Source: Chloroflexia bacterium (GTDB lineage Bacteria; Chloroflexota; Chloroflexia; DTKN01). From it: a stretch of 28,951 nucleotides of DNA. Below the pieces are notes generated by a model. The model was not told where the DNA came from. It worked only from the letters and a program-made list of their open reading frames with translations, and did no database searches. Shown in pieces: positions 16,379 to 18,688 of the stretch. Position numbers and translations under genes: made by a program. Within the stretch, counting starts at the first letter, position 1, and each line of letters begins with the position of its first letter. The stretch covers positions 1-28,951 of the forward strand of contig JBMFPK010000001.1 in the NCBI GenBank assembly GCA_049969155.1. Direction: 5' to 3'.

Positions 16379-16756
16379 CTACAACCGGATCCCGGAAAGC
16401 AGCTCTGCTGCACAGGTCCCGCAGAGCACCAGCCCGACCTTTTCCAGCGGCGCAGCCGGACCCCGGAAGCGCCGCCCGCACCGGGGGCAACTGCGTACCA
16501 CCGACTTGGACCGGACGGGAACCTCCTCTCCCGTCGAGGTCACCCCGGCCCCAAAGCCGAGCGGTCCCAGGCGTGCAGCGAGGCGCCTTGCTTCGCGAAG
16601 CGTCACCTCGTCGCCCGCGACCAGCGCAGCCTCGGCGATTTCCCGCACCACGCGTGCGGCATATTCGAGATATCCGGAGAGGCCCTGGTCGCCGGTGGCA
16701 ATCGCCGCTTCCAACTTCCGCTCCAGCTGCACGAGCAGATCCACTCCGGTGACCAT
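16379..16756 (-). CDS. Hypothetical 125-aa protein: helical N-terminus plus CxxC-x18-CxxC metal-binding ribbon
   Basis: ATG 16756 after AGGAGG; CPRC...CGTC near the C-terminus; 20-bp gap to the upstream gene. Confidence 0.75.
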   Translation of the reverse strand: MVTGVDLLVQLERKLEAAIATGDQGLSGYLEYAARVVREIAEAALVAGDEVTLREARRLAARLGPLGFGAGVTSTGEEVPVRSKSVVRSCPRCGRRFRGPAAPLEKVGLVLCGTCAAELLSGIRL

Positions 16757-16776
16757 CTCTCCTCCTGTCGGGCCAC

Positions 16777-17289
16777 TCAGAACCGCAGGTGGCCTCTCAT
16801 CTCCTTTCCCTCCCGTATCCACACGATTTCCGCGGTCTGTCCTGGGGCGATCTCCTGGAGCCGTTGCTCGATCTCGTCGGGCCCCTGTACCCGCGCGCCC
16901 GCCAGGCGAACGATGATGTCACCTTCCCGAAGTCCAGCTGCTTCAGCGGGTGAACCCGGCAAGACGTGCGCCACATAGGCTCCGTCGACCGCCCATCTTT
17001 CCCCCGGCAGGGTGCGAGTCGCGGCGACGCGTGCCCCGAGCCGCGGGCGCTGCGCGGCCACACGGGCGAGAGCCCGCTCGAGCCGCGTCCGATCGAAGCC
17101 GACGATCACCTGGTCGCCGACCACGATCACCGGGACACCGAATTGCCCAGAGCGCGCAACCATCTCCGCGGCAGCGGCCTGATCCCGGCTCACATCCCGT
17201 TCGCGGTAGGCAATCCCTCTTTGCGAAAGAAACTTCTTCGCCAGGTCGCAATACGGTCAGGTTGGCGTAGTGTAGACGATCACTTCCAT
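16777..17289 (-). CDS. Probable selenoprotein: glutaredoxin-like (UPYC) domain fused to a PDZ domain, 170 aa
   Basis: ATG 17289 after GGGAGG translates as MEVIVYTTPT-(TGA 17259-17257)-PYCDLAKKFLSQRGIAYRERDVSRD...GVPVIVVGDQVIVGFD, then a PDZ domain (GAYVAHVLPGSPAEAAGLREGDII). The TGA occupies the first Cys of the Grx CxxC motif. Confidence 0.88.
17223..17241 (-). promoter_or_regulatory. Candidate bacterial SECIS element
   Basis: GCGAAGA-AGUU-UC(U)UUCGC hairpin starting 16 nt after the UGA; the apical loop starts 22 nt downstream with G as second base followed by U. Folded by eye. Confidence 0.6.
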
Positions 17290-17323
17290 CCAGTTTCCCT
17301 CCCGAGCACACTTCCGAACTTTG

Positions 17324-18688
17324 CTACTCGAGCACGGCAAGGAAACGGTCCCCTGTGAGGCGAAGGCGGAACTCGGCACCGCAGATCGGGCAGGTGAGCT
17401 CCCCCGCACGAAGGGCCTCCTCCCCGACCTGTAGGAGGAACTTGCACACGGGGCACAGCACCTCCGAGCCGCTGCTCCTCCAGTACCGCTGATCGAACAG
17501 TGCCCGCAGCAGAGCGGGGTCGATCTCGTCGTACGGTGCCTTACGGCGCACGAGGTCTTCGACGCGTCCCGCCTCGCTCACATCGCCGATCATCACCGCT
17601 CCCACGAGCCGGCCGTCGGCGATGATGAGCTCCTTGTAGACGCCGTTCAGCGGGTAATCCCCGGACTCCCGCTGCACCTTGCTCGCTGAGGGGCGCAACT
17701 CGCCCATGACCAGCAGCGGCATCCCGAACACCCGCGTGGACAGCACGATCGTGCGCCCCCGGAACGGCGCATTTCCCCCGGTGAGGTTGATGCCCGCAAC
17801 GACGCCCTGATGCCACGCCCGTAACCACCCGTAGGGAGCGCCCTCGCCCGGAATCTGCACAGCGTCCCCTGCAGCGTAGACGTCCCGCAGGGGCGTGGCC
17901 AACCGATCGCTCACGGGCAGGCGGTTGCCGCTCACATTCAGGCCTGCCGTCTGAGCCCACGAGAGGGGCGGACGCATCGAGATGGACAGTCCCACCAGAT
18001 CTGCCGGGATGCGTTCTCCGCGCAGCGTCTCCACCGCGCGCACCCGGCTGCCGCTGCCCAGGAACGCGACAACCTCCGCCTGCGGTAGGACCTCGACCCC
18101 CTGGGCTGCAAGTCGCTCCTCGATCACGGCCGAGGCGTCCGGACTGAGCAGGTTGGACCAGAAACGCGGTCCGGAAATCAGGTAGCGTACCGGGAGCCCA
18201 AGCTCCCGGAAGGCACGGGCCATTTCCAGACCGATGATCCCTTCACCGACGACGACCGCCTGCCGTGCGCCCTGGGCCAGCTCGCGCAATGTGCTCAGAT
18301 CCTCCAGTCGCTGGAGGCTGAGGAGCCCCGAAAGCGTGTCGCCCGGGATGTGCCCCCTTTCCGGTGCGACCCCCACGGCCAGGAGCAGCCGATCGTAGGG
18401 AATCCGTTCCCCCGAAGCGGTCTCGACGTGGTAGGAACGCGTGTCCAACCCGGTGACCGTGGTTCCCAGGCGCAAATCGATCCGGTTTTCTTCGTAGAAG
18501 CATGCCGGACGTCCCCGCAGCTCCTCGAGCGGCACACGGCCGCTCAGGTGGTCCACCAACGCCGGCCTGCGGTAGAACGCTACCCGCTCTGCGGAAAGGA
18601 TGGTGATCTCGGCCTCGGCTTCCCGCTTCCGGATCACCTCCGCGGCTTTCGTGCCGGCTACACCGTTTCCAACGATCACGTAGCGCAT
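17324..18688 (-). CDS. FAD-dependent NAD(P)H oxidoreductase (NirB/rubredoxin-reductase-like) with a C-terminal CxxC-x17-CxxC domain
   Basis: YVIVGNGVAG, FYRRPAL, PYDRLLLAVG, VVVGEGIIGLEMA, YAAGDA; C-terminal CPVC...CPIC. Confidence 0.88.
   Translation of the reverse strand: MRYVIVGNGVAGTKAAEVIRKREAEAEITILSAERVAFYRRPALVDHLSGRVPLEELRGRPACFYEENRIDLRLGTTVTGLDTRSYHVETASGERIPYDRLLLAVGVAPERGHIPGDTLSGLLSLQRLEDLSTLRELAQGARQAVVVGEGIIGLEMARAFRELGLPVRYLISGPRFWSNLLSPDASAVIEERLAAQGVEVLPQAEVVAFLGSGSRVRAVETLRGERIPADLVGLSISMRPPLSWAQTAGLNVSGNRLPVSDRLATPLRDVYAAGDAVQIPGEGAPYGWLRAWHQGVVAGINLTGGNAPFRGRTIVLSTRVFGMPLLVMGELRPSASKVQRESGDYPLNGVYKELIIADGRLVGAVMIGDVSEAGRVEDLVRRKAPYDEIDPALLRALFDQRYWRSSGSEVLCPVCKFLLQVGEEALRAGELTCPICGAEFRLRLTGDRFLAVLE

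Follow-up and report, generated by a model that had tools for sequence, protein, structure and literature searches.

A clade of rubredoxin-reductase-like flavoproteins with a fused LysW-type ribbon, one of them encoded beside a selenocysteine glutaredoxin in a Chloroflexia bacterium

Three closely packed genes on a Chloroflexia contig encode a flavoprotein, a selenocysteine glutaredoxin-like protein with a PDZ domain (Sec-Grx-PDZ), and a Cys4 protein (gene 3). Judged by sequence, the flavoprotein belongs to a clade of uncharacterised rubredoxin-reductase-like enzymes in which a LysW-type ribbon is invariant and the NAD(P)H site has been reshaped. The block as a whole is, somewhat probably, a reduced anaerobe-type operon against oxygen and peroxide stress, in which electrons would run from NAD(P)H through FAD and a rubredoxin-equivalent ribbon to di-iron detoxifying proteins, with Sec-Grx-PDZ as a parallel arm and gene 3 as a family-specific neighbour. 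The window, meaning the whole stretch of DNA analysed, spans 28,951 nucleotides; the features concerned are these:

18791-18819, minus strand: candidate sigma-70-like promoter, TGGACA-17-TAGAAT with extended -10, by consensus match only
17324-18688, minus strand: flavoprotein gene, open reading frame of 454 aa
18230-18247, minus strand: reshaped pyridine-nucleotide loop, residues 148-153 (G-E-G-I-I-G), from alignment
17381-17455, minus strand: LysW-type Cys4 ribbon (C412, C415, C433, C436), from profile and PDB matches and conservation
16777-17289, minus strand: Sec-Grx-PDZ gene, open reading frame of 170 aa whose codon 11 is TGA (T-P-T-U-P-Y-C motif)
17257-17259, minus strand: in-frame TGA (Sec11), from reading frame and orthologues
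17223-17241, minus strand: SECIS-like hairpin with a 4-nt loop (G at loop position 2), 16-34 nt past the TGA
16379-16756, minus strand: gene 3, 125 aa from an ATG behind an AGGAGG site
15271-16347, minus strand: mraY/wecA-like glycosyltransferase family 4 gene, starting 31 bp downstream of gene 3

The tight spacing noted earlier holds, with gaps of 34 bp between the flavoprotein and Sec-Grx-PDZ genes and 20 bp between the latter and gene 3. The original prediction also placed all three after one promoter, and one candidate does lie ~100 bp upstream of the flavoprotein gene, in the gap that separates it from a divergently oriented glycosyltransferase gene (10/12 match; 1 site found against 0.3 ± 0.5 by chance in shuffles, counted by consensus match only). 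The block is not a closed three-gene unit, however, as same-strand genes continue past gene 3: after the mraY/wecA-like gene come genes of the PCC/DUF296, Nudix-GNAT, and PucR-like types, and a search of 11800-19200 gave no terminator-like site on the minus strand. The block is probably co-transcribed.

The flavoprotein combines Pfam Pyr_redox_2 and Rubredoxin_C domains, a core of the rubredoxin/ferredoxin-reductase type, with a C-terminal Cys4 ribbon. Its AF2 model (pLDDT 90.2) matches ArR (3lxd, Z 38.3) and Clostridium acetobutylicum NROR (3klj, Z 34.4) in VIA structure comparisons, which upholds the earlier description as rubredoxin-reductase/NirB-like. No NCBIfam cut-off was reached, the best HMM score being that of TIGR02374 over residues 4-385. 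The protein has five cysteines, C63, which is not conserved, and the four of the ribbon; therefore, the core contains no cysteine of the TrxR or CoADR type, in agreement with the reported lack of a TrxR-type CxxC. With this core, FAD motifs that are invariant in 65/65 sequences aligned, and no catalytic cysteine, it is NROR/rubredoxin-reductase-like, and its fold and sequence match the cysteine-less one-electron reductases.

NROR (C. acetobutylicum 3KLJ, P. aeruginosa 2V3A) and the NROR-rubredoxin fusions (class F flavodiiron proteins) share with it a three-domain FAD core with Rubredoxin_C (Z ~34), the absence of a catalytic cysteine, and rubrerythrin/FprA/SOR neighbours. Unlike them, the flavoprotein bears a LysW-type CxxC-x17-CxxC ribbon instead of a PF00301 rubredoxin, has Glu within its nucleotide loop and a clade-specific W-x-x-A-W motif, and lacks the NADH-type acid, at ~25% identity and below all NCBIfam cut-offs. 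Structurally, the core is closest (Z 35-38) to oxygenase-coupled ferredoxin reductases (ArR 3LXD, BphA4, TodA, Pdr) and to the N-terminal region of NirB, which is also the top HMM, but the locus has no Rieske/P450 or siroheme genes. Several identities were discarded. TrxB does not fit a protein without a redox-active CxxC in the NADPH domain, and the genome's TIGR01292 match above cut-off lies on another contig. A CoA-disulfide reductase, NADH peroxidase, or Nox is rejected because positions 38-44 read F-Y-R-R-P-A-L, with no conserved Cys near 42, and scores fall far below the cut-offs. The NirB large subunit has ~800 aa and a TIGR02374 cut-off of 578 bits, against 454 aa and 181.7 bits here, and the BFD and NIR_SIR domains are absent. 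A paralogue (G000 C289) that seemed to hold three TGA codons is no selenoprotein but an ordinary 395-aa ribbon-less reading frame, the match having continued beyond the stop codon.

In the tree, the ribbon flavoproteins form a small monophyletic clade of 60 sequences from several phyla, or ~25-30 clusters at 50% identity. The hosts are Chloroflexia, Brocadiales, other Planctomycetota, Actinomycetota, and a Sedimenticola symbiont, and most members are misnamed 'nitrite reductase large subunit'. No paper on the clade was found in the literature searched, and a sample of 400 other Chloroflexota genomes, with 8 candidates scored in each, did not yield the enzyme.

The C-terminal CPVC-x17-CPIC is present as reported, and its four cysteines are kept in 60/60 clade sequences, a conservation above chance, as is that of the gene-3 motif. 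Of the proposed fused rubredoxin-like or dithiol domain, the Cys4 domain itself is real and could be rubredoxin-like, but it is closest to the zinc-binding LysW: the best PDB match is LysW 5k2m (E=1.7e-6), while rubredoxins reach E>=0.07 over one knuckle only. Pfam Zn_ribbon_LysW is matched by 16/16 at E<=0.1, this protein scoring 18.6 bits against a cut-off of 27. An assignment to rubredoxin PF00301 (CxxCG-Y-x-Y ... W-x-CPxC, ~29 spacing) was dropped, as the spacing is 17 and PF00301 is not among the matches. The LysW amino-group carrier (5K2M, 3VPB, 3WWL) is a stand-alone protein with a C-terminal EDWGE tail, whereas the ribbon here is fused to a flavoprotein that ends L-A-V-L-E. Cys4 ribbons with two knuckles are suited to metal chemistry in one-electron steps rather than to thiol-disulfide exchange, which counts against the relay. 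When the model is overlaid on NirB-type proteins (443 and 429 of 454 residues aligned), its ribbon region coincides with the segment that comes after their core, which hints at an electron-exit position for the ribbon. A literature search on LysW/rubredoxin ribbons returned nothing.

The match to LysW lends itself to a different explanation, unlikely although of appreciable probability, in which the ribbon would be a structural zinc finger for docking or sensing. In view of the clade's reshaped nucleotide site, the flavoprotein would on this explanation use another donor or acceptor, serve as an oxidase or redox sensor, or have little activity; it would be linked to stress without being a self-contained rubredoxin reductase. 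Free rubredoxin-like genes beside some clade members speak for this explanation; against it, iron binding and electron transfer are possible for CSL-type zinc ribbons, as reported for Dph4 (PMC3339945).

The nucleotide site bears on the zinc-finger explanation from both sides. Favouring it, Gly149 is replaced, mostly by Glu/Asp, in 60/60 ribbon-clade sequences (Gly in 84/110 ribbon-less relatives), G150 and G153 are often lost, and W-x-x-A-W is fixed (W292 in 52/60). G237 is kept in 25/60 members against 109/110 ribbon-less relatives. The canonical NADH site, a G-G/A-G-x-x-G loop plus an acid at the end of strand beta-2, is absent clade-wide; the present flavoprotein keeps the GxGxxG spacing and has Glu149, Ile171 where the NADH-type acid would stand, and Ser237. 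Given Glu149 and the missing conserved glycines, its nucleotide use is not secure. The predicted NAD(P)H to FAD step is less secure than first thought, given the reshaping of this site throughout the clade. A dead site is nonetheless made less credible by the x-R-G-E-R loop of several ribbon subclades, which aligns with that of Pyrococcus horikoshii CoADR, an enzyme that prefers NADPH (PMC6026696). Absence of the acid in the nucleotide site fits a change away from NADH (PMC7969121) rather than lost binding. The nadE gene adjoins the flavoprotein gene at 4/13 host-family loci, a further point against the zinc-finger explanation.

Outside the host family, rubrerythrin lies within ~4 kb at 10/16 ribbon loci, a set that includes near-duplicates and was scored with a local Rbr profile partly trained on the loci counted, most rubrerythrins being confirmed by Pfam. 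Such neighbours occur in 6/7 ribbon subclades with context, together with Fur/PerR-like, desulforedoxin/rubredoxin-like, FMN_red, FprA, or SOD genes. Rubrerythrin also occurs near ribbon-less relatives (21/65). Related loci share gene types with anaerobe oxidative-stress operons of the rbr-perR-rbo type (bioRxiv 10.1101/2024.09.17.613384), in comparison with which the host-genus block is reduced to reductase and Sec-Grx-PDZ and fused with unrelated genes.

Sec-Grx-PDZ proved to be real. Pfam places a glutaredoxin-like domain of the YruB/Uxx-star type before the PDZ domain, the codon is TGA in 6 and TGC in 2 host-family orthologues and mixed across the phylum, and the genome, a MAG, has complete Sec machinery (tRNA-Sec (selC), selA, selB, selD). 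The SECIS-like hairpin folds at -6.4 kcal/mol against -1.1 for synonymous recodings (fraction 0.012), recurs in 6/6 UGA orthologues, and is lost in 1/2 Cys orthologues. Its position and loop G agree with the bSECIS criteria (hairpin 16-37 nt downstream, G in loop positions 1-2; PMC13188914); taken alone, its energy does not reach the -7.5 threshold of the model, and minimum-energy folding of 65 nt gives another structure (-21.4, z -2.55). Of the NrdH/Grx-like label, the glutaredoxin half stands (TIGR02196 88.6 bits against 88.55, marginal, with U read as C; NF041212 74.1 against 66), but an NrdH-redoxin does not: TIGR02194 gives 47.8 against 85.75, the motif is U-P-Y-C rather than C-V/M-Q-C, and no nrd genes lie at the locus. 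The best PDB match of the domain is 7C10 (E=3e-16), selenoprotein Grx1 of C. oremlandii. YruB-family, Cp9-like, and Uxx-star proteins have the same UxxC active site, and Sec-Grx-PDZ differs from them by its C-terminal PDZ. Sec-Grx figures in a selenoprotein review, where the one PDZ selenoprotein listed is a different protein, Trx7/PDZ with CxxU (PMC13188914). Gene callers cut the Grx-PDZ gene down to its PDZ part in many Chloroflexota genomes.

The gene-3 protein is predicted to comprise a three-helix bundle (residues 4-66), a flexible linker, and a C-terminal CxxC-x18-CxxC-helix finger. The CPRC-x18-CGTC reported for it is conserved, its four cysteines being kept in 29/30 homologues, the exception being C-terminally divergent. 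No significant match emerged from Pfam, NCBIfam, Foldseek, the VIA wide search, or ESM Atlas (best VIA Z 8.6, to generic helical bundles over residues 1-75 only; best ESM Atlas 0.83). Spacing and the predicted helix 113-121 fit a treble clef (CxxC knuckle, 18 residues, CxxC at helix start), and the finger may resemble a ClpX ZBD-like treble-clef zinc finger. The gene is limited to the host family (9/61 genomes, all of that family). A role as relay partner or substrate is favoured by its presence in the block at 12/13 loci, but its constant neighbour is mraY/wecA, which it precedes at 12/12 loci, and it touches the flavoprotein gene at only 3. Complex prediction with the flavoprotein scored 0.01, uninformative either way.

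[quoted passage not shown] Conservation of the gene neighbourhood had been set beforehand as the test that could refute it. Tight co-directional spacing and a Grx in the block at 9/13 host-family loci favour the relay, as do three other loci (L041, L228, L229) where a Grx or Grx-PDZ lies close to a ribbon-less relative, and a trxB-like gene start just downstream at the ribbon locus L118. Against it, Grx is missing at 4/13 family loci and accompanies 0/16 ribbon loci outside the family. The two genes are directly adjacent only in the host genus (3/13 loci), and others are inserted between them at 6/9 loci, including a 175-aa rubrerythrin without a rubredoxin domain at 4/13 family loci. Three genomes of one genus (94-95% complete) gave no full-length Grx-PDZ match and keep the flavoprotein with all four cysteines. 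Grx-PDZ occurs in 28/200 other Chloroflexota genomes, the ribbon enzyme in 0/28 of these; no flavoprotein was found in the 1.5-kb flanks of Grx-PDZ outside the host family, and wider cuts brought in ribbon-less NRORs at 1.8-3.4 kb in two genomes. Canonical TrxR is present in 9/9 host-family genomes. Co-occurrence is not obligate, and the outcome goes largely against a dedicated relay. In a bolder version, the LysW-type ribbon would be an iron centre through which the clade reduces the selenenyl-sulfide of Sec-Grx-PDZ directly; a selenoprotein redoxin would thereby have a reductase that needs neither TrxR nor glutathione, and gene 3 would be its client. This version is quite unlikely.

It is also doubtful that the block reflects inherited synteny only, as a mixed housekeeping operon (nadE, mraY/wecA, PCC, Nudix-GNAT) whose genes do not act in one pathway. 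The mraY/wecA, PCC, and Nudix-GNAT genes are as conserved in it as the redox genes, and unrelated genes are freely inserted and deleted, as such an operon would have it; yet the flavoprotein clade and Grx-PDZ appear independently in oxidative-stress islands of other lineages. Two of the 28 genomes, from another Chloroflexota family, hold Grx-PDZ in a classical, complete Rbr/(Prx)/SOR/rubredoxin/FprA/NROR island whose NROR is canonical and ribbon-less, and co-location is therefore explained without a relay.

The stress-operon reading draws on NROR-rubredoxin-Rbr/FDP chemistry (bioRxiv 10.1101/2022.02.02.478753; 10.1101/2024.09.17.613384). The flavoprotein would act as an NAD(P)H:rubredoxin oxidoreductase does, with the equivalent of rubredoxin built in. 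Its FAD would be reduced by a pyridine nucleotide, NADPH being at least as likely as NADH, and would hand single electrons to a metal-Cys4 centre, probably iron, in the fused ribbon and on to di-iron detoxifying proteins, mainly short rubrerythrins without a rubredoxin domain. Sec-Grx-PDZ may be a co-transcribed parallel arm for thiol repair or peroxiredoxin reduction, probably reduced by ordinary thioredoxin reductase and with the PDZ as a putative substrate-docking domain; a similar Cp9 redoxin acts between TrxR and Prx (PMC3720550). Gene 3 would supply a family-specific adaptor, probably a zinc binder with no shown redox role. Against this reading, the ribbon appears nearer to zinc-binding LysW than to rubredoxin. 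The window contains no rubrerythrin gene; the genome's rubrerythrins are encoded outside it, a short one beside the genome's own rubredoxin, and the genome also has ribbon-less reductase paralogues, so the ribbon enzyme is not needed for that job. A literature search on short rubrerythrin donors found nothing.

The useful result is the ribbon enzyme clade rather than the relay. Its clade-wide Glu in the nucleotide loop offers a clean test of coenzyme use, and Sec-Grx-PDZ provides an annotation fix for many Chloroflexota genomes. If the stress-operon reading is true, the LysW-type 'zinc' ribbon would be a built-in rubredoxin that feeds short rubrerythrins lacking a rubredoxin domain, anammox bacteria included.

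The block originally predicted to encode a redox relay comprises three tightly spaced, co-directional genes separated by 34 and 20 bp, with a promoter-like site ∼100 bp upstream and all of the quoted cysteine and selenocysteine (Sec) motifs present in the sequence:

17324-18688, minus strand: flavoprotein gene
16777-17289, minus strand: Sec-glutaredoxin (Grx)-PDZ gene
16379-16756, minus strand: gene 3, encoding a Cys4 protein

The MAG, with the window as its contig C1, measures 2.69 Mb and is 94% complete. The run extends past gene 3 to a mraY/wecA-like gene 31 bp downstream, then PCC, Nudix-GNAT and PucR-like genes; no minus-strand terminator-like site was found along the run. 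The Nudix (zinc-ribbon type)-GNAT acetyltransferase fusion (13764-14723, minus strand), downstream of the PCC gene, is kept in the host-family block.

The flavoprotein scores under all NCBIfam cut-offs, and its core is, as anticipated, of the rubredoxin/ferredoxin-reductase type without CxxC or any conserved cysteine. Homologue searches returned a small family sharing the same C-terminal ribbon (CPVC-x17-CPIC here), whose four cysteines are invariant (n=60). In a FastTree phylogeny of a redundancy-reduced set (residues 1-395 only, midpoint root), 60/60 ribbon sequences group within a single 61-tip clade (support 0.992), and 109 ribbon-less relatives lie outside it. The ribbon most closely matches LysW (E=1.7e-6), with weak likeness to rubredoxin. 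The FAD motifs are intact, and the nucleotide site is reshaped: Gly149 occurs in 0/60 ribbon sequences (Glu in 38, Asp in 9) versus 84/110 ribbon-less ones, Gly237 in 25/60 versus 109/110, Trp292 is clade-specific, and the NADH-type acid at residue 171 is absent. A structural-zinc or altered-chemistry enzyme is a possible, though rather unlikely, reading of such a protein. Because the x-R-G-E-R loop of several ribbon subclades resembles that of the NADPH-preferring P. horikoshii CoADR, these sequences make a coenzyme change at least as likely as lost nucleotide binding.

With TGA read as Sec, the second gene encodes a protein of 170 aa that combines Grx and PDZ domains; it scores above the YruB and Uxx-star cut-offs and misses that of NrdH. 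The MAG encodes tRNA-Sec, selA, selB and selD. At the Sec codon, host-family orthologues carry TGA (six) or TGC (two). A hairpin 16-34 nt 3′ of the TGA is kept in 6/6 UGA genes, where its stability exceeds that of synonymous recodings (fractions 0.008-0.042). Of the two Cys-type genes, one lacks it; the other (L191:6915-7430) still keeps this SECIS-like element, which suggests a recent Sec-to-Cys change. Under published bSECIS criteria (PMC13188914), spacing and loop fit, and the energy threshold is missed when the hairpin is folded alone; the 65-nt fold around the TGA differs from the local hairpin. Sec incorporation in this predicted selenoprotein is very likely. The fusion is common, with near full-length matches in 28/200 other Chloroflexota genomes.

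A second Sec-glutaredoxin family (Q-P-T-U-x-D-C, without PDZ) occurs in G000, apparently the same MAG (C2:1094-1309, L058), and at L054-L057 (genomes G003, G004, G007, G008); a clean SECIS-like hairpin is again present, at an equal distance. Other candidate Grx-like matches containing TGA lie on contigs C49 and C82. The SelD match (G000 C92:1068-2003, L045) has one in-frame TGA; selenophosphate synthetase is therefore probably a selenoprotein itself.

Across 13 loci of the host family or close kin, the flavoprotein gene is followed by a variable insert, then by gene 3 and mraY/wecA. Gene 3 is present at 12/13 loci, always immediately ahead of mraY/wecA; Grx-PDZ is in the block at 9/13 and adjoins the flavoprotein at three, all in the source genus. 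In one genus retaining the flavoprotein, a search for a full-length Grx-PDZ match found none. A 175-aa rubrerythrin occurs at 4/13 loci. NAD synthetase (nadE) is also encoded at 4/13, immediately after the flavoprotein gene (e.g. L078:8277-9014, L191:5419-6159, L192:5470-6201). Mere synteny of the three genes is very unlikely. At L073:8100-9042 (G003), an extra ∼300-aa ORF between flavoprotein and rubrerythrin resembles, by eye, a pterin-binding/AcsE-type methyltransferase barrel.

Gene 3 is confined to 9/61 class genomes, all of a single family; its 29 homologues show 45-85% identity throughout. In the predicted structure, a three-helix bundle is joined through a low-confidence linker to a Cys4 finger that closes with a helix; this treble-clef-like pattern usually binds structural zinc. 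Position is the sole tie of gene 3 to redox.

Outside the host family, ribbon loci have rubrerythrin nearby in 10/16 cases and Grx in 0/16 (counts only, the loci not being independent), versus 21/65 and 1/65 for ribbon-less controls. At two additional ribbon loci (P0035 and P0038), covered without DNA sequence, rubrerythrin was seen and Grx was not, and rubrerythrin-bearing loci span 6/7 subclades with known context. Fur-family, rubredoxin-like/desulforedoxin, FMN_red, FprA and SOD genes also occur. Among the 28 Grx-PDZ genomes outside the host family, none has a match spanning core and ribbon. The predicted dedicated relay is unsupported, and direct transfer from flavoprotein to Sec-Grx is very unlikely.

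Fusions of rubredoxin-like and desulforedoxin-type domains (77-89 aa; genes at L113:5286-5519, L116:5373-5606 and L199:4194-4966) flank the ribbon flavoprotein at Brocadiales-like and other loci and are candidate direct acceptors. At the P0035 and P0038 loci, the gene run that contains the ribbon flavoprotein also includes ferritin-like, cysteine desulfurase, NifU, TusA, rubrerythrin and second Pyr_redox genes, a hint of a tie to Fe-S repair. In two of the 28 genomes, both Chloroflexota, Grx-PDZ lies inside a full oxidative-stress island (L228:131-7349, L229:753-6566) with rubrerythrins, superoxide reductase, rubredoxin, FprA, a canonical ribbon-less NADH:rubredoxin oxidoreductase (NROR) and, at one locus, peroxiredoxin. 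One island is broken, by eye, by small PIN/PemK-like genes.

The block is most likely what remains of an oxygen-stress operon. In this reading, the flavoprotein would serve as an NROR with its electron carrier built in: NAD(P)H would reduce FAD, and electrons would move on via a metal-Cys4 ribbon to detoxifying di-iron proteins, on the pattern of the known NROR-rubredoxin-Rbr/FDP pathway. Sec-Grx-PDZ would form a parallel arm fed by TrxR, present in 9/9 host-family genomes, much as Cp9 does (PMC3720550). We lean towards this combined reading, all of whose catalytic steps we infer. Short rubrerythrins are encoded elsewhere in the MAG; since it also has its own rubredoxin and ribbon-less reductases, the ribbon flavoprotein may be redundant or specialised. 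The genes are real, and the reductase clade is uncharacterised and of modest interest.
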